This document shows, in pieces, positions 3,851 through 25,601 of a stretch of DNA of 25,601 nt. The position numbers and the translations under genes were made by a program. Source of the stretch: Promethearchaeota archaeon (GTDB lineage Archaea; Asgardarchaeota; Lokiarchaeia; Sigyniarchaeales; SOKP01); the NCBI GenBank assembly GCA_048938895.1, contig JBHLLU010000054.1, positions 1 through 25,601 of the forward strand, given 5' to 3'. Below the pieces are notes generated by a model. It had not been told where the DNA came from. It saw only the letters and a program-made list of their open reading frames with translations, and ran no database searches. How positions within the stretch are numbered: position 1 is the stretch's first letter; each line of letters begins with the position of its first letter.

Positions 3851-3962
3851 TGTACTTTTATGAATAAAAATATTCAACTATAAATTAGAATTTTCAAAAT
3901 AATTTAAATATATTATATACTTTAATTCTTAGATTTTAATGATTTAGAAAGATTTGAGCAAT

Positions 3963-5381
3963 ATGAGCGATCTTGAAGGTTTAACGAGAAATCTAATGAA
4001 AAAAGGGTATTCAGAAAAGAAGATTCTTACAAGAATTGTCCAAGAATATCAAGATTTCAAAAATATAGATAAAAAATCGGCATTGAATTACGCTAGAGCA
4101 ATTTTAGAAGAATGTCAGAAAAGTGACCTTAATCGAGTATCTAATCCCTTTATTAAAAATCTTTTGACTATAAATAGAGCAGATGTTTCGATTGGTAAAC
4201 AAGGAGTAGGATGTAGGGGATCTGGAGATTTTTTTGTTCATAAATTAATTGCAGAATTGTCAGAAACAGAGAAAAGAGCATATTTATCGCCAAGTTCCTT
4301 AGATGATGCTGGTGCTGTGAAAATAAGTGATATTGAAGGTTTTAAAGCTGAAGATGGATTAATTATTGTATCAAAAATGGAAGGTATTCATAGTCGCCTA
4401 AGTGACTTTCCCTTCTTGTGTGGTTTTCACGTAAGTTCATGAAATACGTTTGCATGAAGCGTATCGAGAGCCGCACTACGAGATCTCTATGTAAAAGGAG
4501 CAAAACCCATTTCAATAATGATTGATACCCATCTAGGAGATGATGCAGATGTTGGTAAACTATTTGATTTTATGGCAGGAGTCTCAGCAATTTCAGAATT
4601 AGCAAAAGTACCAATTACTGCTGGTTCAACTCTGCGTATAGGGGGTGATATGGTTATAGGAAACAGATTGGTTGGAGGGATTAGTGCTATTGGAATCTGC
4701 GATCGAGTTCTAGCTCGGAGGAACATTAAAGTGGGGGATAAAATATTAATGACAGAGGGCGCAGGAGGAGGAACAATTACAACAACAGCAATCTATTCTG
4801 GAAATCATCATGTTGTAAATGAAACTGTAAATATCAAATTTCTTGAAGCTTGTGAAAAAATTTTAAGCTCAGATTATATTGACAAGATACATGCTATGTG
4901 TGATGTAACTAATGGTGGTTTAAGAGGGGATTTATATGAAATTAATTATGAAGCGAATTGTGGAGTTCAAATTTATGAGCAAAAAGTTAGGAGTTTAGTT
5001 AACCCTAAAGTTCTTAAAATGCTTAACCAGGTAAATGTTGATTATTTAGGGGTTTCATTAGATGCATTACTCATTTATTGTTCAGATGATATTGCTGCTA
5101 GGATTATTGCTGATTTAAATGAAATAAGTATTAAATGTACTGAAATTGGACTGGTTGATGGTTCAAATCAAGTGAAGATGATATATAGTGAAGGAGAGCA
5201 TGAAACAATTTTACCTCGATTTAGAGAATCTGCCTATACTAAAATCAAACAAGAAGTTGGGGAGGATGAACCCAAATCAAGGGAAGAATTAGAGCATAGA
5301 GTAGAAGAGGCAGCATCACAAGCCTTGAAAAAACGCAGAGAAATAATTGATTTTATAATAAAACAATCATCAAGCGTCTAG
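3963..5381 (+). CDS. PurM/AIR-synthase-related protein, intron-containing: join(3963..4434,4465..5381), 462 aa
   Basis: ORFs 3954..4442 and 4518..5381 are in the same frame, and the gap between them encodes the missing family-like segment RAALRDLYVKGAKPISI. Removing 4435-4464 gives GIHSRLSDFPFLCGFHVTRAALRDLYVKGAKP. Other motifs: GVGCRGSGDF, DDAG, GSTLRIGGDMVIG, DVTNGG. Confidence 0.9.
4435..4464 (+). other. 30-nt archaeal-type (BHB) intron in a protein-coding gene
   Basis: Exon-exon stem 4418-4428 with 4466-4476 (11 bp including G-U); central helix ACGU 4429-4432 with GCGU 4459-4462; 3-nt bulges AAG 4433-4435 and AUC 4463-4465; intron hairpin UUCAUG-AAA-[UACG]-UUU-G-CAUGAA. Contains two in-frame TGA codons. 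Confidence 0.88.
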
Positions 5382-11339: not shown

Positions 11340-12797
11340 ATGGAAAACAAAAAGCGAAATACTGAGGAGACTGCCTTTAGAAGGGCATTTGGAATTCATT
11401 TAACTTCAAGTAAAATCTTTAAAGATTATATTTTTCCTGAAATTCAAGATAAACTTTGGCAATATAAATGGATAGATTTGTATGCGGGTGAAGGAAATTT
11501 AATAATTCCAATATTGAATTCAATTCCTCTTAATGATCGGATAAAATTTTTTAATGATCATGTTTTTCTTTCTGACATTCATCCAGAAATGGTCGAGAAA
11601 TGTATAGAAAATGTAAGAAATTATGGAATTCCTTCTGAAGTCGCTTTAAATAACATTAAAGTTCGAAATAATTTAGAGAACTTCCCTAACTTCTTGAAGG
11701 ATGAAAAATTACCTTTATATCATATTACGAATCCCCCTTATTTATATTTGGGCTACATTAGAAAGCACAAAGAGACTCAGAAGTATTTAAAACTTTTTGA
11801 AGGAAAAAATGAAGGTTATCAGGATCTTTATCAAATCGCTATGATCAGCGATTTAAGAAATAATATTCAAAATCTCGTATATATTATTCCTTCTAACTTT
11901 TTATTTGGGGCTTCAGTTTCAAATAGATTTAGGGGAGATTTCTTAAAATTCTATGATATTAGAAAGATGTTTATCTTTGAAACCAAAGTTTTCGAATTTA
12001 CAGGTACAAATATTTGTATCGGTTTTTTTGAAAAGAAATCAATTCCAAAAGAAGAAAATGTAGAATTTAGTGGATTAAAAATTGAAAATCAAAGAAAACC
12101 AAAAGAAATGAATTATATCCTCAAACCTGAATTTAATTATAGAGCAGGTTCTGAATTTGATGAGTTTCTTAAGGAATACCAGCTTAAAGACACACTCAAA
12201 GTAAAATATTATCTTTTGAAGAAAGATTTATTGGTTAATTCAGGAGGGAACAAGTTAGACGTTATTGATGCTAATAAGTACCAAAACAATCAGTATAAGA
12301 AATTAACAATAGAAGTAAATAATGAGTTTAAAGAAACTATTCAATCGAATATATTATATGTTCGAACAGTCGATACTGGTTCTTACGACGGAAGAGTTGG
12401 GTTAGGTGTAATTTCTGAAGATTTCAATGTAAATGGAATTTATGTTTCTGGGAATACCTATCGGACTCATCCAATCCAAATATTCTTTGAGCCAACAATT
12501 TCATTAACTGAACAAAATCTTTTAAAGAATTATTTTAATTTTATATTAGAGACTTTTAGAGAGAGACTTGATAGTAGCTTTCTTACAACGTACAAATATT
12601 CTAATGCAGAGTATACGAGAAAATACTTAGGCTTAACTCAAGCGAGAAAATTAATTCAAACCTATCCATATACTAATATTTCTCTAAGGCTTAAGGAAAA
12701 GTTAGCTAATTTTATAAGAAAGAAAGATTTTAATGGAGTATTAGAACAATTAAAAACTTGCAAAAAGGAAAGCAATCAATCCGAGATACGCACCTAA
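11340..12797 (+). CDS. Amino (N6-adenine-type) DNA methyltransferase, gamma-type motif order, no adjacent endonuclease
   Basis: Motif I DLYAGEGNL precedes motif IV TNPPY; also DLYQIA, YIIPSNFL and VFEFTGTNICI. Confidence 0.85.
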   Translation: MENKKRNTEETAFRRAFGIHLTSSKIFKDYIFPEIQDKLWQYKWIDLYAGEGNLIIPILNSIPLNDRIKFFNDHVFLSDIHPEMVEKCIENVRNYGIPSEVALNNIKVRNNLENFPNFLKDEKLPLYHITNPPYLYLGYIRKHKETQKYLKLFEGKNEGYQDLYQIAMISDLRNNIQNLVYIIPSNFLFGASVSNRFRGDFLKFYDIRKMFIFETKVFEFTGTNICIGFFEKKSIPKEENVEFSGLKIENQRKPKEMNYILKPEFNYRAGSEFDEFLKEYQLKDTLKVKYYLLKKDLLVNSGGNKLDVIDANKYQNNQYKKLTIEVNNEFKETIQSNILYVRTVDTGSYDGRVGLGVISEDFNVNGIYVSGNTYRTHPIQIFFEPTISLTEQNLLKNYFNFILETFRERLDSSFLTTYKYSNAEYTRKYLGLTQARKLIQTYPYTNISLRLKEKLANFIRKKDFNGVLEQLKTCKKESNQSEIRT

Positions 12798-13622
12798 TTT
12801 TAGGATTAAACTAACTTTTTTAAAATCTTTTCTTACTAAATTGCTTTTCATCATTATTATCACAGCATAAGCAACAACCCCTAAACCGAAAAACATTGAA
12901 ATTAAGAAGAGCATACGATTAATTATTTCCGTAAAATACGGTAAGATAAAGAAGATAATAGCAAAAATTGCAAAGATCATTGATATTTTCGTGGATTTTT
13001 TGATCCCAATTCTTATAGCAAGAGTTTTAACTCCTTCTTTTTCGTCTCCTTCAATATCTTCGCATCCTTTAATAATTTCTCGGGAAAGTAAGAGGAAGAA
13101 TGAAGTCAAAAAGAAGAAATAGATATAAAACGGCACATTCGCATTATTTAATATAGCACCATAAACAAGACCAATAGAAAATGATACACTTACAATAATG
13201 TTTCCCATAAATCCGCTTTTTTTACCCCACGCAGCATATAACCAACCAATAAATACCATAAAAGCAGCAATAATAATGTTTAGAAATCCTCTGTTGAATA
13301 ATAAACCATGAAAAATAGCTACAACAATACCAATTATAGCAGCAATTAACCATAATATCTTTGCTTGTTTTAAAGTAATTGATTCTCTCGGGATAGGTCT
13401 ATCGGGACGATTTATTTTATCAATTTCCACATCATAATAATCATTTATAACATTTCCCGAACCAGCGATAAAAAAGTATGTAACAATACCCAATACAATA
13501 TTGATAATTAAAATAGGCACCTCCACTCCGACTCTGGTATTTAAGATACCAATTATCACAGTTAAGCTTCCCATAAGACAGTTAAGAGGACGGAGAATTT
13601 CAAATGCATCCTTTGCTTTCAT
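12750..13622 (-). CDS. Digeranylgeranylglyceryl phosphate (DGGGP) synthase, UbiA family
   Basis: ILRPLNC, NVINDYYDVEIDKINRPDRPIP, REIIKGCEDIEGD...GVKTLA; directly downstream of GGGP synthase. Confidence 0.92.
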   Translation of the reverse strand: MKAKDAFEILRPLNCLMGSLTVIIGILNTRVGVEVPILIINIVLGIVTYFFIAGSGNVINDYYDVEIDKINRPDRPIPRESITLKQAKILWLIAAIIGIVVAIFHGLLFNRGFLNIIIAAFMVFIGWLYAAWGKKSGFMGNIIVSVSFSIGLVYGAILNNANVPFYIYFFFLTSFFLLLSREIIKGCEDIEGDEKEGVKTLAIRIGIKKSTKISMIFAIFAIIFFILPYFTEIINRMLFLISMFFGLGVVAYAVIIMMKSNLVRKDFKKVSLILKLGAYLGLIAFLFASF

Positions 13623-13649
13623 ATTTTAATTCTTCTCAAGAATGAAATT

Positions 13650-14468
13650 TTAGTTTATTGAATAATTCTTCTTTTGATTACTTCCAGCAGATTTTATTTC
13701 TTCGATAATACCTTTTAATGATGTTCCATTGTCTTTTAAAACATTATTTTCAAGGAAAGTCCCCATAACGACAATATCAGCACCTGCTTCAACGAAAGTT
13801 TTCGCATCCTCTTTATTACCTACACCACCCCCGACAATCAAAGGAATATTAAGGATTTTTGAGCACATTTCAATATGCTCTTCTGGAATCCTTTCACTTC
13901 CAGAACCTGCTTCTAAATAAATCATTTTAAACCCAAACATCTCTGCTGCTAAGGCATAAGCGGTGGTCAACTTTGGTTTATTCCTTGGTAATAATTTAGC
14001 ATTGCCGATCCATCCAGCGCTGGCTCCTGGTTCTATTATTAAATAAGCCATCGAAATATATTCCAAATTAGCAGCTTTAATAGTATATGAAGCTAAAGCT
14101 TGTTCTCCAACGATAAAGTGAGGATCTGCAGAATTTAATAAAGACATGAAGAAGATAGCATCAGCATATTGAGAAATATTGCTAATTCCTCCAGGGAAAA
14201 TGATCAAGGGAACTTTTACTTTTTCCTTTATTTGTATTATGGTTTTATCCACAAATGTTTGATTAAAGACAGTACTTCCCCCTATCAAAATGGCATCAGT
14301 TCCCGCTTCTTCGGCATATGCAGCCATTTTTGCTGCCTTATTTGGGCTCTGCCTCAATGGATCTGGATCAATTAGGGAGAAGTGTAAAGCTCCTTCATCA
14401 TTTATTTTCTTAATAATATACTCATAAGTACTTTTTTCGACATACTCATCAATTATAATATCAACCAT
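13650..14468 (-). CDS. Geranylgeranylglyceryl phosphate (GGGP) synthase, group II-like
   Basis: HFSLIDPD, ILIGGS, IFPG, FFMSLLNS, YLEAGSG, LIVGGG, GADIVVMGT; Trp in SAGWIG at the aromatic-anchor position. Confidence 0.95.
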   Translation of the reverse strand: MVDIIIDEYVEKSTYEYIIKKINDEGALHFSLIDPDPLRQSPNKAAKMAAYAEEAGTDAILIGGSTVFNQTFVDKTIIQIKEKVKVPLIIFPGGISNISQYADAIFFMSLLNSADPHFIVGEQALASYTIKAANLEYISMAYLIIEPGASAGWIGNAKLLPRNKPKLTTAYALAAEMFGFKMIYLEAGSGSERIPEEHIEMCSKILNIPLIVGGGVGNKEDAKTFVEAGADIVVMGTFLENNVLKDNGTSLKGIIEEIKSAGSNQKKNYSIN

Positions 14469-14490
14469 ATTATCACATCTTTTACATCAT

Positions 14491-15882
14491 TTATTTCTTT
14501 TTAGTGTTAACAACCATTCTTTTAATTTTATCATAAATTCTAATAATATTTTCCTTCCATTCTGGAAATTTAGTAGGATTTTCAGGAAAACTTTTGTAAA
14601 GCCTCGAAATTTCATTCATTCTAATTCTCAAATAGTTTAAATCCAATAATAGGTTAGGACGGGATATTCCTTTGAATGCTTTTATTGCCATATTTACTAA
14701 TGATAAATTTAATCCACCTTTCGATGATATCTCTAGAATTTCATCCCCACTTAATAAATCACGTTCTAAACCAAAATTTAAATCCTCATTTGATAAGTGT
14801 TGTAGAACTATTCTTAATAAATCTAAAGCGGCAAATTCAGCTCCAAAACTTGTCATGACACTATGATTATAGTCCCATAATGCATTAACTGAATAATCCT
14901 CTTTTCCGATAGCAGAAGTAGCAGAAATAGCAGCATAATAACCTGCTCTCATTGAAGGATCTATTCCTCCACCATGAAGCGGATTCACCTGACAAGCAGA
15001 ATCCCCAATAAGCATTATCCCATTGTCAGTGCAAGACCATAATGGTCTTCTTACTGGAACTACACCCCCTCCCGAAGAAATTATTTCATATTTAGAGGTT
15101 TTAATAAACTCTTGAAAAACATTTTTTTGGTAGAAATCCTTTACTCTTCCCTTGTAATCCATAAAAGCTCCTAAGCCTATGTTAACGGAAGATCTATTCT
15201 TTGGGAAATACCAGATATATCCTCCTGGGGCTTTCTCCTGATCAAGTATTATTGTTATGTATTCAGGATCTTGCACTTCTTGGTCTTTTGATGAAAATCT
15301 TACGATTTCACGATAACATAGAATACTATCTTCTTTGGAAATGGTAGTTTCGATAAGATTACTAGAAAGAGCTTTTCTTAAAGGAGAATAAAAACCACTC
15401 GCATCAATTAAAACTTTGGATTTTAATTCAATCTTTTCTCCATTTGTTAATTTTACCTTTAAACCACTAACAGTACCATTAGTGTAAATTAAATCTAAAG
15501 CCATAGTCTTATCTAAAAATTGGTTTACACCAACATCAATAGCCTCGTTCAATAATCTTTGACCAAATTCTAATCTATTTACAATATACCCTGCTTGTTT
15601 CGGATCAACTAAAGTTAAACATTTCTTTAGGTTTGGTGAATATAGTTTTGCTCCTTTTATATGACAAGATAGCTCATCATTTCTTGGATGATTTATGTTC
15701 AAAAGGTCAAATATCTCATTTCCAACTGCATCTCCACATATCTTATCCCCGATTTTATCCCTCGGTTTCCCATCAATAAGACATACGTTTAAACCATTTT
15801 TAGCAGCAAACCTCGCGGCAGTGGTACCACCTGTACCAGCTCCGACCACAATAACATCAAACGATTTTTGGATGTTTTCCAT
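14491..15882 (-). CDS. Geranylgeranyl reductase (digeranylgeranylglycerophospholipid reductase)
   Basis: VVGAGTGG FAD-binding motif, KICGDA, PGGYIWYFP (YxWxFP), GDSACQVNPLHGGGI; in the lipid operon. Confidence 0.9.
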   Translation of the reverse strand: MENIQKSFDVIVVGAGTGGTTAARFAAKNGLNVCLIDGKPRDKIGDKICGDAVGNEIFDLLNINHPRNDELSCHIKGAKLYSPNLKKCLTLVDPKQAGYIVNRLEFGQRLLNEAIDVGVNQFLDKTMALDLIYTNGTVSGLKVKLTNGEKIELKSKVLIDASGFYSPLRKALSSNLIETTISKEDSILCYREIVRFSSKDQEVQDPEYITIILDQEKAPGGYIWYFPKNRSSVNIGLGAFMDYKGRVKDFYQKNVFQEFIKTSKYEIISSGGGVVPVRRPLWSCTDNGIMLIGDSACQVNPLHGGGIDPSMRAGYYAAISATSAIGKEDYSVNALWDYNHSVMTSFGAEFAALDLLRIVLQHLSNEDLNFGLERDLLSGDEILEISSKGGLNLSLVNMAIKAFKGISRPNLLLDLNYLRIRMNEISRLYKSFPENPTKFPEWKENIIRIYDKIKRMVVNTKKK

Positions 15883-19511: not shown

Positions 19512-19657
19512 TATATTCTAGCTATATATTTTCAGGATATGGGATTTTCGCAGGTAATTCATGGTATTTATACTCAGATTAGAATTAGAGTAAAAAAAAA
19601 GAAAATTAGTCAAATGGACTTTCCATAGATCTTCTATTTAAATCTTGAGAGGAAAAG

Positions 19658-20524
19658 TCATTTCAAAGGCTTATCTAATATTTCAGAAAAAATTAGAAAT
19701 TCTGAAAACTCAAATGGTTTTAAAAAATAACCCTCGAATTCTACTTTTCTTAATCCTTCTTCTATTTCGCTGTAGGGAAAGGCGGTCATCAAGAATATTT
19801 TATAATCGTTGTCTCTATGCATTGATCTAATTCTCGTACATAATTCATATCCATTTAAATCTGGGAGAAGGATATCTAAGAGAATTATTTTAGGATTTCC
19901 ATTTTTTAAAACTTCAATGGCTTCATTTCCACTTAAAACCGATTTACAAGAGATATCGAATTTCTCAAAGTATTTTATAAGAACTTTTAGTGTAGGGGCA
20001 TCATCGTCGACAATTAAAATATCATACTGCTCTGATTCGTAAAAATTTTCTAATGAATTCTTGATTTTTTTCTCAAGTAAAATACTTGAATTAAAAATTT
20101 CTCCTACAATAGTTTCTATTTCATTATTAATTTCTTCATTATATTGCTCAAGAAGTATCTGGGAATTTGCTTTAATAGATGTTAATGGTTCTTTTAGATC
20201 ATGTGAAATTTTTGGTAGATTAACTATATATTCCTTATTTAACCCTTCTCTAAGCCTTCTATTGATATATTCATTTACACTTTCTCTGATTAATTTAGAA
20301 AAACCTTTCAATTCTCCTGATTCTTCGATAAATTCTTTCCAATAATTTTTGATTTCCTTCGAAACATACAAAGAAATCCTATCCTTATTTCTACTATAGA
20401 TTTTATCCCCCTGCCTCCATTTCTCAAATTCTTTAGTTATTTTACCTCGCCATATAGCTTTTTTGCCTGTTTCCTCTTCAAATTTTTTCATATCTAGTTC
20501 TATTTGGGATTGACTACTGGACAT
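19658..20524 (-). CDS. Multidomain regulator: short N-terminal module, ribbon-helix-helix-like domain, HisKA and receiver (no HATPase)
   Basis: RISLYVSKEIKNYW...FSKLIRESVNEYI (RHH-like); SHDLKEPLTSI (H-box); receiver with VDDD, LLDILLP, MTA and KPF. Start ATG 20524 or GTG 20536. Confidence 0.8.
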   Translation of the reverse strand: MSSSQSQIELDMKKFEEETGKKAIWRGKITKEFEKWRQGDKIYSRNKDRISLYVSKEIKNYWKEFIEESGELKGFSKLIRESVNEYINRRLREGLNKEYIVNLPKISHDLKEPLTSIKANSQILLEQYNEEINNEIETIVGEIFNSSILLEKKIKNSLENFYESEQYDILIVDDDAPTLKVLIKYFEKFDISCKSVLSGNEAIEVLKNGNPKIILLDILLPDLNGYELCTRIRSMHRDNDYKIFLMTAFPYSEIEEGLRKVEFEGYFLKPFEFSEFLIFSEILDKPLK

Positions 20525-20526
20525 GC

Positions 20527-20556
20527 TTTTTACCACGAAATGGACTTTTTTACCAC
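20527..20556. promoter_or_regulatory. 10-bp direct repeat TTTTTACCAC x2 at 20-bp spacing, upstream of the regulator (candidate operator)
   Basis: Copies at 20527-20536 and 20547-20556, between a - strand TATA-like element (about 20574-20583) and ATG 20524. Confidence 0.45.
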
Positions 20557-20699
20557 AAATATAAAGGAGCTTATTTATAAATATTTGTCTTTATTTTAAA
20601 TATTTGAATTGTCCAAAGTATGGTCAGGCATTTCCGACCCAAAATCTTTGAAAAGAGAAAAAAAAGAGAAAAAAAAAATTTTGATAGTTGATTATTCTT

Positions 20700-21512
20700 T
20701 TATAATTCTAGTATCGTAAAGAAATTTTGATAAGCTAAACTACCTATAATAAGTCCATCAGGGTCATCAGTTGAAATTTCAAAATATATATATTCTGCCT
20801 TATTTATCCATAATGTATCGGTAAGAACGATATTACTAGCTCCTACGTCCCCAATAAGTTCAATAAACGTTCGGAGGATTCCATTCACTCGAAGAGCCAA
20901 ATCGACTCTATAACCACCCACTAAATGCCCAACCTGTAGATTTACATGTATTTGATAATATCCGTCTCTGGGAGCTATGAATTGATCATTAATTAAATCA
21001 AAATCTGAATTAAGATCGTAGTCAAGAGAATCAAAGTCCACCTTTTCAGTAGTCGCATAAGGGATGGTTTGACCACCTGAATAACCTCGTATCTTTGAAA
21101 GGATTATATTTTCTACATAAACAATTACATCATCCTGGGCTACATCCATGCTGGGAATATCAATCACAATTATAGAAAGATTCCACCACCCATTACCAAT
21201 AGTACTAGTATTCCATACTTTAGGCAAAAAAATTCCTATTTCAGTTCCATTTCTAAGAATAGAAACAGAATAATTCTCACTACCATATATAAAAGCACTA
21301 ATTTTTACATTTCCTGATACAACTTCATCATAATCAGGATCTAATATTTTTACAATTATTCCTCCTAGCGCATCTTTCCCATCAGTTCCATCTTTTCCAG
21401 AAGGTCCTTCAACCACTTGAAAGTTTACAACTGAATATACTCCTACTGCTAATCCAGATAATCCAATGATGAGTGCAATAAGCCCAAAAAATGAATTTTT
21501 ATTTTTTACCAT
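20700..21512 (-). CDS. Membrane-anchored protein with short collagen-like repeat, Ig-like segment and C1q/TNF-like C-terminal domain
   Basis: N-terminal TM helix; GPS-GKD-GTD-GKD; WNT...NGWWNLSI (Ig-like); VDFDSLDYD...FIAPRDGYYQI...FFTI (C1q-like). GAGGTG RBS upstream of ATG 21512. Confidence 0.65.
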   Translation of the reverse strand: MVKNKNSFFGLIALIIGLSGLAVGVYSVVNFQVVEGPSGKDGTDGKDALGGIIVKILDPDYDEVVSGNVKISAFIYGSENYSVSILRNGTEIGIFLPKVWNTSTIGNGWWNLSIIVIDIPSMDVAQDDVIVYVENIILSKIRGYSGGQTIPYATTEKVDFDSLDYDLNSDFDLINDQFIAPRDGYYQIHVNLQVGHLVGGYRVDLALRVNGILRTFIELIGDVGASNIVLTDTLWINKAEYIYFEISTDDPDGLIIGSLAYQNFFTILEL

Positions 21513-21619
21513 AAATTTCACACCTCTAGGTTGTAGACTAAAATGATTATGTTACATGTGTAAGACAGTTTTGTATATAAATATACTATACATTACATAA
21601 TAATGTAAATTCTATTACT

Positions 21620-21835
21620 GGGATGAAATAAGTAAGGACACACTCGAGGAGGTCTGCCCTGCGTTGCTCAATTTGGCATTTGAGAGCGAAAAAGGTCTGC
21701 TCAAAAACCAGTTGGGAAACGTAATTTTCCAAAACCACAAATTATATCGCAGATCTAGCCAGACTCACTTTCCCCTCCTCTAAGGATTATATTTAATAAG
21801 GATTTTTGTTGGATTTTCGGTCAGAAACTCATCCT
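21620..21835 (+). ncRNA. Candidate structured non-coding RNA (family not recognised)
   Basis: GC-enriched non-coding island with nested compatible stems (listed in findings), TATA-like sequence at about 21575-21585 and T-tracts at about 21851-21890. Confidence 0.4.
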
Positions 21836-21959
21836 ATTCCTCTATCCCCTCTTTTGTTTTTTGGCTCTTTTTTCTCTTCTTTTTTTTTATTGAGTAGCCA
21901 GAAAATTACAAATTCTCTATACAAGGGAAACTTAAATCCTTTTTTTTATTATTACAACT

Positions 21960-22075
21960 ATGGGGCTTGTCAATCAAGTATCCCCTATTCTACCTTAAAA
22001 CGCTTAGAAGCAAAAGAACTGGTTGATACTAAAATGGATACACTGAATGGAAGAAAAGTAAAGAAAAAAAAAAAG
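21960..22075 (+). pseudogene. Remnant of a PadR-like winged-helix gene
   Basis: YSTLKRLEAKELVDTKMDTLNGRKVKK resembles the PadR recognition helix and wing (compare YPILRKLEGDGII...GRKRK in the 7336 gene); no plausible N-terminus; decays into an A-run. Confidence 0.45.
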
Positions 22076-22100
22076 GTTAGAGTAAAATTTATTGTATTAT

Positions 22101-22556
22101 TCATTCAAGATATTCTGCGCCTAACTCAGTAGCAAGACCTTGTATCTCTCCAAATGCGAATCTGCCTTAAACGGTAGTTCCGAAAAAGTTTGCATCTTGA
22201 AGGTTTCCTTCAATGACAAGGTCTCCAGACATGTATGCGCTAGTAGAATCAATTTCACCAGCACTTAATCCAGTCCAAGTTGCTTGAGTGGCTTTCATGG
22301 TAACAGTTGCATCATCATTTGCACCTTCACCATACTCAACTGCACCTTCACCAAATTTAACCCAATATTTAAAATCTAGATCAGTAACTTCCATTTGAGC
22401 AATGACAGTATCAATATCCTCGAGTTCTTCCTTAAATTCCTCGTTTTCTTCACCAAGCTGTTTCATGAATTCAAATAATTTAAGAGCATCAGAAGGTTCT
22501 CCTGGACCCTTCTCTCTCATTGCTTTTAACTCATTAATTAAATTTTCATCAACCAT
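22101..22556 (-). CDS. SCP2 sterol/lipid-binding domain protein, probably intron-containing: complement(join(22101..22159,22190..22556)), 141 aa
   Basis: DDATVTMKA...GEIDSTSAYMSGDLVIEGNLQDA is an SCP2 signature. After the TAA at 22169-22167 the same frame continues AFGEIQGLATELGAEYLE*, supplying the missing terminal helix. Confidence 0.8.
22160..22189 (-). other. 30-nt archaeal-type intron with relaxed BHB motif
   Basis: Helix AUGC/GCAG (3 of 4 pairs), bulges AAA and AUU, intron hairpin CUU-UUU-CGG-[AACUA]-CCG-UUU-AAG, in-frame TAA. BHB-register cuts give GAU GCA A|UC GCA UUU = DAIAF. Confidence 0.68.
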
Positions 22557-22679
22557 TCTTTTATCAACTTTTTTTTTTTTTGATATTTTTTTATATGTCA
22601 TCTTGTTTTAAAGTTTTATTTAAAAATTTGCAGTTATGTCCAAAATCACATATAGTCATAGGAATCAATCTATTTAAAA

Positions 22680-23891
22680 TTATAAGCTAAAACAACAATT
22701 TTTATACTTTTTTCCACTTCCACATGGACATGGTGAATTTCGACCTATTTTTGTCGATATAAACGGTATAGAAGAATTAATTTTAATCTCATCTCTTATC
22801 TTCTTGGCTAGTATTATAAAACGAGGCAATGTATAAGCATAGAATTTTTTCCATCCTTTACATAAAGCACTAATGGCATCTAAAACTTGAGAACCATTGA
22901 ATCGGAATTTTTGACAATCTCCATGACATAAATTAATGAATGGGCATTTACAACAGGCCTTATTCCATTTTGCTTTTGCGGAACCAAACTCCTTAAAAAT
23001 TTTAGAATTTATGAACTCATTCCAAGTATTTGTTTTCACATTTCCTAATAAAAGATCTTCTCGAACAAAAAAATCGCAAGGATATACACTCCCATCATAC
23101 TCGACTACAAAATATTGACAACAATTATTACCCATATAACAAACACTATAATTTCCATACACCAAATAATTTAAAATTGAATCGAATAAACGAATTGATA
23201 TCTTTTTTGTATCATTTTTGATCCAGTTATCAAATAATTCGCATAGAAATGCCCCCCATTCCTCTCCTGTAACAGAATATGGTCTAAGATCACCATTCTC
23301 ATCAAATTCTACACATGGGATATACTGGTGATAATAAAATCCATTTTCTTTTAGATATTGATAAATTTCATTAGGCTTTTTAACATTTTTATCATTCACA
23401 AGGGTTAAGATATTAAATTCAACATCATTTATTCTCAAATGATTAATTCCACGCATTACTAAGCTATGTGTTGGTGTATTGCCAATTGTTTTTCTATAAT
23501 AGTCATGAACATCTGGGGGACCATCTAAACTAACGCCAAGAAGAAACTTATATTTAGCAAAAAATTTAGCTAATTCATCTGTAATAAGAGTTCCGTTAGT
23601 TTGAAGTCCGTTACTTATTACTGCACCAGGAGGTGCATGTTTTGTTTGGAATTGCACAACTTTTTGCCAAAATTCTAAACCTAATAAGGTAGGTTCTCCT
23701 CCTTGCCAACCAAATGCATATTGATTATTTTGATCAGTTTGCATATAACTCGCTATCATTGATTCTAATGTAGCTTCTGACATTCTAGGCTTTTTTTCAA
23801 CAATATCTAGATGGTTGATATAAAAACAATATTTACATCTTAGGTTGCAATCTGCTGAAGCTGGTTTAATTAATAATGAAAAGGATTTCAT
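22680..23891 (-). CDS. Anaerobic sulfatase maturase (radical SAM/SPASM) with C-terminal SEC-C motif
   Basis: KPASADCNLRCKYCFY, WQGGEPTL, QTNGTL, SLDGP, GSVYPCDF, CxxC...C..GDC; tail GRNSPCPCGSGKKYKNCC. Confidence 0.93.
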   Translation of the reverse strand: MKSFSLLIKPASADCNLRCKYCFYINHLDIVEKKPRMSEATLESMIASYMQTDQNNQYAFGWQGGEPTLLGLEFWQKVVQFQTKHAPPGAVISNGLQTNGTLITDELAKFFAKYKFLLGVSLDGPPDVHDYYRKTIGNTPTHSLVMRGINHLRINDVEFNILTLVNDKNVKKPNEIYQYLKENGFYYHQYIPCVEFDENGDLRPYSVTGEEWGAFLCELFDNWIKNDTKKISIRLFDSILNYLVYGNYSVCYMGNNCCQYFVVEYDGSVYPCDFFVREDLLLGNVKTNTWNEFINSKIFKEFGSAKAKWNKACCKCPFINLCHGDCQKFRFNGSQVLDAISALCKGWKKFYAYTLPRFIILAKKIRDEIKINSSIPFISTKIGRNSPCPCGSGKKYKNCCFSL

Positions 23892-23921
23892 TTTTGTATG
23901 GTATACGACCTCAGTTTTGAT

Positions 23922-25601
23922 TTATTTTCCCTTAATTTTTACTAATTTGGTCATGGTTCTTAGTAAAGGAAGATAATTTTTAGGAAGTATTTTCTCAAAT
24001 ATTTGTATTAGTATATCTTCATCAATTTCAGTGATATTTTTCTTTATAATCTCCTTTTCTATTTGTGAATTTGTCGGATTATGGAACTGAGATGGAACAT
24101 AGCCCATAATTAGAGAATACATGCTTTTTCCTTTGTTATTCCAGATAATTGCTGTATCTGCAATTTTACCTTTCATCCCAGAGCGCGCTTCAGTTAGATT
24201 TAAATGTTCATCTGTAATTTCACCTTCATATGGGATTCCAAGACGTTCAAATTGTTCAGTTGGAGAATCATTTTCTTTCATTTCTTTAACTAAAGCTCTT
24301 ATCATCCTTTTCTCAATATCAGAATCAATCAGTGGACGTTCTTGATGAGGATCATTTTGAAGATCAAAAAGTAGGCTCCCAAAAACATAGGGATTAACAT
24401 ATGTGGATCTTGCCTCGGTCTTTATAAGTTTAATTCCTTTTGTAAAGCTAAAAGGATCTGCTAAATCGATGGTTTTTAATTCATTAAGAGCAAAAAATCC
24501 ACGCATGTGGGTAGGCATAAGAGTATATTCATAAATTGGTTTGTTTAAAATGTTTGTTGGCGCTCTCATATAAATATAACGCCCATCTGTAACATTTACA
24601 TGGGCTCCATGTGTTCCAAATATTAGATAATTCCTAATTTTCACATCTGAATCAACAGAATCTTTTAATACTTTACCCTGCATATCTTTTGTACGGGTTA
24701 TTCTGAAAAACTCAAGGATTGTAGGAACAATATCTGTAGTTTGCACTAAAGCGGTTCTTCTTTCATTTTTCTTTCCCGATCTTGGATCCCAGATAAATAA
24801 TGGTATTTGTGCTATCTCATTATAGATCGGTTGTACCCCCTTTGCCCACCAACCTTTCTCTCCTAAAAGAAAACCATGATCTGTAGAAACAATAAGCATT
24901 GTATCTTTCCACATATCTTTTTCATCCATCATATCAAGGAGTTTGCCAAGATATGCATCGCACATACTCACGGAAGCAGCGTACTCTTTTCGAATATGTT
25001 GTACCTGTTCTTCAGTTTCAGTTACTATTCCATAATTAGGCCAATCGAAATGTGGACCGTCATACTTATGTTTATATAAATCTTTATATTTTTGTTGGGT
25101 AAAAAAGGGTTCATGTGGATCAAATGTTTCAATGTGAAGGAACCAATTATCTTCCATATGGTTTTTATCAATGAATTCTAAGGCGAGTTTAAATGTTCCT
25201 GCTTGAGGCTGGTTTTCTTCTTTTTGCATATACTTACGGTTTACCCAATCTTGGCGCCAATGAGGCCAACCTTGCCGTATATTAGGTACGGTCTCAGGGA
25301 TGTCAGGATCTTTTACTTCTCCTTTCCAAGCATCTCCTTCATGACCTCGAATAATTTCCCATGTATTAAATCTGCTATGATATGTTAAACCACCATCTTC
25401 CCAATAATGATAATGATCACTAACAAGATGAGAATAAATATTGTTCCTCTTCAAAATCTCAGGCATTGAGTCATCAAACGGTTCTAAAGGCCCCCAACTC
25501 CTATGTAAAAAGTTGTGTCTTCCCGTATGAAGTTCTCTTCTAGCGGGAATGCACATTAAACTGCCACAATAGCAATTATCAAATGTTACGGTTTTTTTAC
25601 C
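23922..25601 (-). CDS. Cys-type sulfatase, 5' end beyond the window
   Basis: Frame is open to the window edge: GKKTVTFDNCYCGSLM-CIPARRELHTGR (CxPxR formylglycine motif), FDPHEPF, TDHGFLLGEKGWWAK; adjacent to the maturase. Confidence 0.93.
   Translation of the reverse strand, partial: GKKTVTFDNCYCGSLMCIPARRELHTGRHNFLHRSWGPLEPFDDSMPEILKRNNIYSHLVSDHYHYWEDGGLTYHSRFNTWEIIRGHEGDAWKGEVKDPDIPETVPNIRQGWPHWRQDWVNRKYMQKEENQPQAGTFKLALEFIDKNHMEDNWFLHIETFDPHEPFFTQQKYKDLYKHKYDGPHFDWPNYGIVTETEEQVQHIRKEYAASVSMCDAYLGKLLDMMDEKDMWKDTMLIVSTDHGFLLGEKGWWAKGVQPIYNEIAQIPLFIWDPRSGKKNERRTALVQTTDIVPTILEFFRITRTKDMQGKVLKDSVDSDVKIRNYLIFGTHGAHVNVTDGRYIYMRAPTNILNKPIYEYTLMPTHMRGFFALNELKTIDLADPFSFTKGIKLIKTEARSTYVNPYVFGSLLFDLQNDPHQERPLIDSDIEKRMIRALVKEMKENDSPTEQFERLGIPYEGEITDEHLNLTEARSGMKGKIADTAIIWNNKGKSMYSLIMGYVPSQFHNPTNSQIEKEIIKKNITEIDEDILIQIFEKILPKNYLPLLRTMTKLVKIKGK

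Follow-up and report, generated by a model that had tools for sequence, protein, structure and literature searches.

The 25,601-nt contig of a Promethearchaeota archaeon analysed here (the window; contig C101 of genome G000, 4.65 Mb in 174 contigs) carries a gene of the SCP2 sterol-transfer family of small lipid carriers whose open reading frame (ORF) is broken near its 3′ end by a 30-nt insert. This insert (22160-22189, minus strand) is probably a relaxed bulge-helix-bulge (BHB) mini-intron within the SCP2 coding sequence, spliced by EndA and RtcB. We infer from the DNA both that the RNA is cut and ligated and that this EndA accepts the relaxed motif. The reading is built on a discrete unit with exact ends and no protein constraint, on base pairs that place those ends in 3-nt bulges separated by four pairs, on the presence of the enzymes and on a canonical intron of the same size in the same genome. 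A preliminary description of the window had proposed such an intron, and it is supported by homologous inserts at the same site, by their non-coding mode of evolution, by the pairs that are kept and by the EndA set of the host. The features of the interrupted gene are as follows.

22601..22167, minus strand: SCP2 ORF as called, 144 codons, ending at TAA 22169-22167.
22556..22190, minus strand: exon 1, from the probable true ATG through the A of the split Ile codon, its last base.
22189..22160, minus strand: 30-nt insert, putative relaxed BHB intron, carrying the in-frame TAA 22169-22167 and an internal hairpin with the loop AACUA.
22159..22101, minus strand: exon 2, the TC of the Ile codon, then AFGEIQGLATELGAEYLE and the stop TGA 22103-22101.
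22195..22192, minus strand: 5′ strand of the central helix H, AUGC, in exon 1, followed by the 5′ bulge AA↓A (22191-22189; the arrow marks the proposed cut).
22165..22162, minus strand: 3′ strand of the central helix, H′, GCAG, in the intron, followed by the 3′ bulge AU↓U (22161-22159).

As the preliminary description had stated, the ORF (22167..22601) halts at a TAA inside the insert and the same frame resumes after it; in translation the frame stays open beyond the TAA for 21 further codons (GRFAFGEIQGLATELGAEYLE), up to TGA 22103-22101. Because orthologues begin MVDENL or MVSEDL, the true start is probably the ATG at 22556-22554 (MVDENL...), 15 codons inside the called start at 22601. The called ORF matches the Pfam SCP2 family (PF02036) with an E value of 4.2e-13 and 49.9 bits (cut-off 21.3) over profile positions 2-93 of 101. 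This match above the cut-off, together with a predicted alpha/beta fold with a C-terminal helix, places the protein in the SCP2 family. Exon 2 encodes most of that helix. The match of an intronless allele, P0068, reaches profile position 98 of 101, whereas the window ORF and one insert-bearing protein both end at 93. In an AlphaFold model of P0068 (30-sequence alignment, mean predicted local distance difference test score 87) there are five strands and a C-terminal helix at residues 134-150, and the insertion site falls between residues 137 and 138, within this confident helix. On this model, translating the insert, or stopping inside it, would break the last helix of the fold. Rfam and ARAGORN tRNA scans of the window returned no matches.

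The insert splits an Ile codon (A↓30 nt↓TC), the window DNA reading GCAA[30 nt]TCGCA at a site where orthologues have GCA AT(A/C/T) GCN. All 19 of the best same-genus orthologue loci are without the insert, have Ile at the junction and read ...QDA-I-A(F/Y)GE..., and tblastn of the read-through translation against these loci opened a 10-residue gap exactly over NFFGTTV(stop)GR. A cut placed one base to either side yields Phe or Asn; since only the cut A↓..↓TC restores the Ile of the orthologues, homology fixes the ends of the insert independently of any structure. The excised unit is then exactly the 30 nt at 22189..22160 that had been bracketed beforehand. Uninterrupted ...QDAIA(F/Y)GE... is also found at 29 of the 31 loci anchored in public contigs (metagenomes and genomes), and in 118 of the best 120 protein matches from a search of 5.8 billion proteins. 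The orthologue alignment recommended as a check therefore came out as expected, and the competing idea that orthologues might normally end at ...NFFGTTV fails, as they read straight through. The intronless allele P0068 shares 149 of 156 aligned residues (96%) with the window gene, has no insert and ends ...GNLQDAIAFGEIQGLATELGAEYLE. Its C-terminus is the predicted spliced product and its tail is identical to that encoded by window exon 2, so that the downstream tail, whose conservation had been in question, is conserved at the protein level. Taking out the insert thus restores a conserved product, both by the 19 orthologues and by the C-terminus of P0068. Stops were also seen inside other SCP2 orthologues; these lie upstream of their true start and are not introns. 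The insert is real DNA, as an independent contig (run X2, record 8, 1529 nt), from a second sample of the same study, covers 21197-22724 and differs from the window only by one mismatch and one homopolymer indel.

Homologous 30-nt inserts in the same phase of the same codon were found at two of the 31 anchored public-contig loci, L062 and L064 (protein identity 74% and 73%). A fourth carrier, P0010, is represented by its protein only, with 10 extra residues at the same site. The three DNA inserts (G000, L062 and L064) align without gaps. Within them 15 of the 30 columns vary, spread evenly over the codon positions (5/5/5); the 37 exon columns upstream hold 8 variable ones, 7 of them third positions. 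L062 and L064 differ at 6 of the 10 insert 'residues', while their flanking residues are nearly identical. The G000 insert contains a stop and the other three alleles are stop-free. Judged by these substitutions, the insert is evolving like non-coding sequence.

The pairs and bulges that had been proposed are all present on direct reading of the sequence, namely the central helix AUGC/GCAG with its terminal A·G mismatch, the bulges AAA and AUU, the internal hairpin (CUU/AAG, UUUxUUU, CGG/CCG) and the exon stem (one G-C, an interruption, then CUUCAA/UUGGAG). When this structure was projected onto the three-sequence alignment, 81.7% of cells held standard pairs, against 35-57% in controls with the 3′ partners slid by 1-3 columns, and two pairs were changed on both sides, against 0-1 in the controls. 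One of these two lies in H (pair 33-64), being U-A in G000 and C-G in both L062 and L064, and its exon side is a synonymous GAU/GAC site. The other closes the intron-side helix h′ (C-G, U-A, U-G). A further pair of H, 34-63, is G-C, G-C and G-U over the three sequences. These three sequences lend modest support to a pairing that is kept in evolution in a sequence that is not protein-constrained. A motif was assigned to the relaxed class if its 3-nt bulges are cut behind base 2, its central helix has three or more pairs and it has one or more flanking helices. At the homology-defined boundaries the insert has three pairs in H, three in h′ (nine positions with the internal loop) and one in the exon stem h, which makes it HBh′-like, and this is kept in L062 and L064. 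Its bulge geometry also fits the canonical hBHBh′ class, but with three of four pairs in H and an h of 1 bp it falls outside that class. Relaxed criteria for the exact 30-nt boundary, set after the structure was seen (at least three pairs in H, three in h′ and one in h), are satisfied at 0.43% of 9.28 million G000 positions and in 165 of 20,000 insert shuffles.

In the mechanism that we propose, the last bases of exon 1 in the pre-mRNA, AUGC, would pair with GCAG near the 3′ end of the intron. Each splice site would thereby come to lie in a 3-nt bulge, AA↓A on one strand and AU↓U on the other, with the intron hairpin as the inner helix. A two-subunit EndA would then cut each bulge after its second base, and RtcB would ligate the exons, rebuilding the Ile codon (A+UC) and the C-terminal helix ...GNLQDA-I-AFGEIQGLATELGAEYLE.

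G000 encodes RtcB (566 bits) and two genes matching the EndA family PF01974, on contigs C83 (202 aa) and C123 (200 aa). The C83 protein keeps Tyr, His and Lys, in ...VVYRQGPGLEHS... and ...SVRKKF.... Its best solved match is 3p1z_B (7e-35, aligned to chain residues 29-186), which we take to be the Aeropyrum pernix EndA heterotetramer. The C123 protein is best aligned to 1a79_A, with KDSAQ against KEHSV in the chain and hence Ser for the catalytic His, and has a weak NCBIfam beta-subunit match. The subunit type of the encoded EndA, which the preliminary description had wanted determined, thus looks two-subunit, with one paralogue retaining the catalytic His and one without it; by sequence the pair fits an (alpha-beta)2 enzyme of alpha- and beta-like subunits. 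The available part of PMC5829648 describes the EndA of Asgard archaea as of (alpha-beta)2 type with an L1 loop. The host therefore has RtcB and an EndA pair, the L1 loop being taken from that excerpt. In the same genome, which is 98.7% complete, ARAGORN finds no more than 24 tRNA genes, of which 13 have an intron, and this suggests that many of its tRNA genes are too interrupted for recognition.

A second intron candidate lies elsewhere in the window.

4435-4464, plus strand: canonical hBHBh′ 30-nt intron in a gene of the AIR-synthase family, called as two ORFs, 3954..4442 and 4518..5381.

This AIR-synthase-gene (AIRS-gene) intron is a perfect hBHBh′ of 16 pairs (h of 6, H of 4, ACGU/GCGU, and h′ of 6 bp), with bulges AA↓G and AU↓C and two TGA stops inside. 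Of 29 other orthologue loci, 28 lack it and have GFHV(T/A)RA.LRD at the junction, the reading expected from the cut. The remaining locus, in another species of the genus (G024), has an intron at the same site that is 29 nt long and would shift the frame if unspliced. In its h′, U-A has become C-G and A-U has become G-U, and its loop is one base shorter. The preliminary description had ranked splicing of the SCP2 gene below that of this first intron, which is strongly supported. Around the intron G000 and G024 are 81-93% identical (60-nt windows from columns 330-510), against 48-78% for four other orthologues. Elsewhere in most of the gene (e.g. windows 30-180 and 600-780) G024 is the least similar of the five. 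The tract of raised identity is about 250 nt long and suggests that the AIRS-gene intron moved laterally together with flanking exon sequence. Like the SCP2 insert it is 30 nt long, has bulges AA↓N and AU↓N, contains stops, is rare among orthologues and is shared with one other lineage. It differs from the SCP2 insert in having a perfect 16-pair hBHBh′ rather than an H of three of four pairs and a 1-bp h, and the two have no evident similarity in sequence. In all copies (both introns of the window, L062, L064 and L044) the 5′ bulge reads AA↓N and the 3′ bulge (A/U)U↓N; the shared letters may reflect an EndA preference or a common origin.

The presence of the SCP2 insert is patchy. Insert-bearing proteins, listed as 151-aa, make up 2 of the best 120 protein matches. 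No second copy of the insert 30-mer was found in G000 by blastn-short, and none within three mismatches was found in 53 other genomes of the genus. A degenerate pattern for an insert at this codon matched only G000 in the genus; order-wide (154 genomes) it gave G000 and one extra match, L090, which is not SCP2 and was set aside as a chance hit. A 50-row protein tree groups the three DNA-level carriers in one 19-row clade, each beside an intronless sister, so that three changes are needed; the groupings of L064 with L063 and of G000 with (L059, L002, L077) have starred supports. Every carrier has an intronless twin of about 95% identity (149/156, 134/141 and 134/141 residues). Between carrier and non-carrier, nucleotide divergence rises downstream of the insert from 0.052 to 0.241 for L064/L063 (Fisher p 3e-5) and from 0.093 to 0.296 for G000/L059, and in three intronless pairs the rise is only 1.3-1.9 fold. 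This jump suggests recombination near the insert, although the tail is short (54 nt) and faster-evolving in general. For related strains covered by two other studies (runs X6 and X7), contigs match the window only as far as 22192; in X6 a stretch of 112 unaligned bases follows before the match picks up again at 19521. These breaks would fit, and hint at, a lack of the insert and of a 2.7-kb downstream segment in these strains. The segment seemingly missing from them (19522-22191) holds a response-regulator/HisKA gene (19658..20536), a gene for a 273-aa protein without a Pfam match (20700..21521) and the spacer downstream of SCP2. An A/T homopolymer at 22568-22580, in the 5′ extension of the called SCP2 ORF, differs in length among contigs and is one base longer in X2 and X7.

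Several observations weigh against splicing of the SCP2 insert. None of the 12 listed runs that hold the locus is an RNA run. Three of the four insert alleles are stop-free and all are 3n long, so that unspliced translation is possible in the stop-free ones. The motif is relaxed, with H at three of four pairs and its A·G mismatch at the outer end in all three sequences, and with h a single, invariant G-C followed by a 4-nt interruption. The covariation comes from three sequences only, and 114 of 500 shuffles reach the observed two double changes. The minimum free energy (MFE) of 22130-22220 has a z-score of -0.56 and the MFE fold is without the BHB, the BHB conformer reaching -5.7, -6.3 and -1.1 kcal/mol in the three sequences against core MFEs of -11.2, -14.4 and -15.8. 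RNAalifold, run on the same three sequences, favours pairing between the exons, AUGC/GCAU, which would occupy the 5′ strand that H needs. Moreover, the available part of a preprint on Asgard tRNA introns (10.64898/2026.10.13.758758) reports that relaxed BHB classes arise by chance at many boundaries given a placement window of ±3 nt; in the SCP2 insert the BHB was placed without any placement window. According to the same excerpt, canonical motifs hold only 58% of called Asgard tRNA introns, and non-canonical splicing substrates appear to be common in Asgard tRNAs. Despite the folding energies, we retained the BHB model because of the comparative evidence.

Structure-based scans across G000 yielded no further convincing mRNA intron, which also counts against the reading. 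A strict hBHBh′ scan gave 224,014 matches, of which filters for ORF continuity left about 3,400, with no excess over slid controls, although these controls are uninformative since in-frame shifts also pass. A paralogue check of 3,452 computationally spliced candidates found spanning matches for 70; when inspected, none of these was convincing. A relaxed scan returned 2,284 candidates, and among the best 78 only the AIRS-gene intron was coding-like on both sides.

The insert could instead be a polymorphism of 10 translated codons in the SCP2 C-terminus that is kept in the RNA, the window allele then being a nonsense copy in a truncated or dying gene and the BHB pairing incidental. The open frame of the other three alleles, the common length of 30 nt, the 151-aa proteins that gene callers list for carriers, the thermodynamic weakness of the BHB and the rarity of carriers (2 of the best 120 proteins) would all suit this view. 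We nevertheless consider it improbable, since the substitutions are spread evenly over the codon positions and L062 and L064 differ at 6 of the 10 inserted residues. What is conserved is the base pairing, not the residues, and at one pair a synonymous site of the exon and its partner in the insert have changed in a compensatory way. Furthermore, the site lies inside a confident helix where the Pfam match breaks (93 against 98 of 101), and the tail past the stop is intact, matching the intronless allele residue for residue.

Less probable still, and in our view quite unlikely, is a small hairpin-forming mobile or recombination-borne DNA element that undergoes no removal from RNA, a neutral or mildly harmful passenger spread by homologous recombination. 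It would account for the patchy distribution, with three carriers each beside an intronless sister and three changes, for the insert-free twin of about 95% identity that each carrier has, and for the jump in divergence downstream of the insert in carrier/non-carrier pairs. A spliced intron would, however, also be expected to occur patchily and to be transferred along with its flanks, and a stop-bearing copy in an otherwise intact gene needs removal. The element is also unlike a repeat family: searches of G000 and of 53 genomes of the genus found it nowhere else, and none of the 153 other genomes of the order showed it at this site. Handling during translation, by ribosomal bypassing or stop-codon read-through, or an artefact of assembly is very unlikely. 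The insert does combine a hairpin and a stop, as bypass elements do; phage T4 gene 60 reportedly has such an element. Take-off and landing on the two GCA codons would, however, lose two conserved residues (I and A), and in L062 these codons are mismatched (GCA/GCT). Read-through would leave 10 foreign residues in the helix, and an independent contig of run X2 crosses the insert, which makes an artefact unlikely.

With splicing as the favoured explanation of the SCP2 insert, the nearest known case is cbf5. In the literature found, some of it as excerpts, no spliced BHB intron is reported for an archaeal protein-coding gene other than cbf5 of Crenarchaeota. The available part of PMC2738675 describes the BHB intron of cbf5 pre-mRNA in Desulfurococcales and Sulfolobales, with a motif that is 'frequently relaxed', hosts that have a hetero-oligomeric EndA and a distribution produced by gain and secondary loss. 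In its relaxed motif, the hetero-oligomeric EndA of its host and its gain and loss, the SCP2 insert resembles the cbf5 intron as described there. It differs in that the host is an Asgard archaeon (Promethearchaeota), the genes are others (SCP2 and AIR-synthase-family) and the length of the SCP2 insert is fixed at 30 nt. Its presence also varies between alleles of about 95% identity, with hints of transfer together with flanking exon, and splicing is deduced here from DNA alone.

The SCP2 insert is also like the relaxed (HBh′/hBH) tRNA introns of TACK and Asgard archaea in size range, cut geometry and presumed enzymes, as far as the available parts of PMC5829648 and 10.64898/2026.10.13.758758 describe these. 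Both the insert and non-canonical tRNA introns, as described there, look like recent, repeated gains at motif-capable sites. Unlike in tRNA introns, the exon half of H in the SCP2 gene uses a synonymous site. The term 'mrna' occurs zero times in the available text of the Asgard tRNA-intron preprint (10.64898/2026.10.13.758758), and full-text literature searches, supplementary files excluded, found no report of BHB introns in Asgard protein-coding genes.

That a single window holds a canonical and a relaxed candidate, both of them polymorphic among close relatives, suggests that the tRNA-splicing machinery of Asgard archaea acts on mRNAs too and that it takes only a short time for such introns to be gained, lost or exchanged. 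More speculatively, and rather doubtfully, BHB mini-introns of about 30 nt could be currently mobile in Asgard protein-coding genes, moving between alleles and species with short flanking exon tracts in a homing-like co-conversion that involves no intron-encoded enzyme. New copies may arise by a reversed EndA/RtcB reaction. If mini-introns are indeed mobile, this would be ongoing gain and loss of mRNA introns in the closest prokaryotic relatives of eukaryotes. The two genes offer a testable system for the entry of introns into protein genes in a eukaryote-related lineage. They also bear on annotation: here gene callers give a truncated SCP2 protein of 144 aa and break the AIR-synthase-family gene in two, and elsewhere they give 'insertion' variants of 151 aa.

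Lastly, the SCP2 gene lies directly downstream of genes for a radical-SAM/SPASM maturase, with a C-terminal SEC-C motif, and a sulfatase (window 22680-25601, minus strand). The SCP2 protein weakly matches the C-terminal domain of alkyl-sulfatases, and the three genes may form a sulfatase module with a lipid-binding partner. A cluster for archaeal ether lipids occupies window 12750-15882 on the minus strand, with a UbiA-family prenyltransferase (12750..13622), PcrB/GGGP synthase (13650..14468) and geranylgeranyl reductase (14491..15882). The first two of these are in the same frame and 27 nt apart; they are separate genes and no case for an intron.

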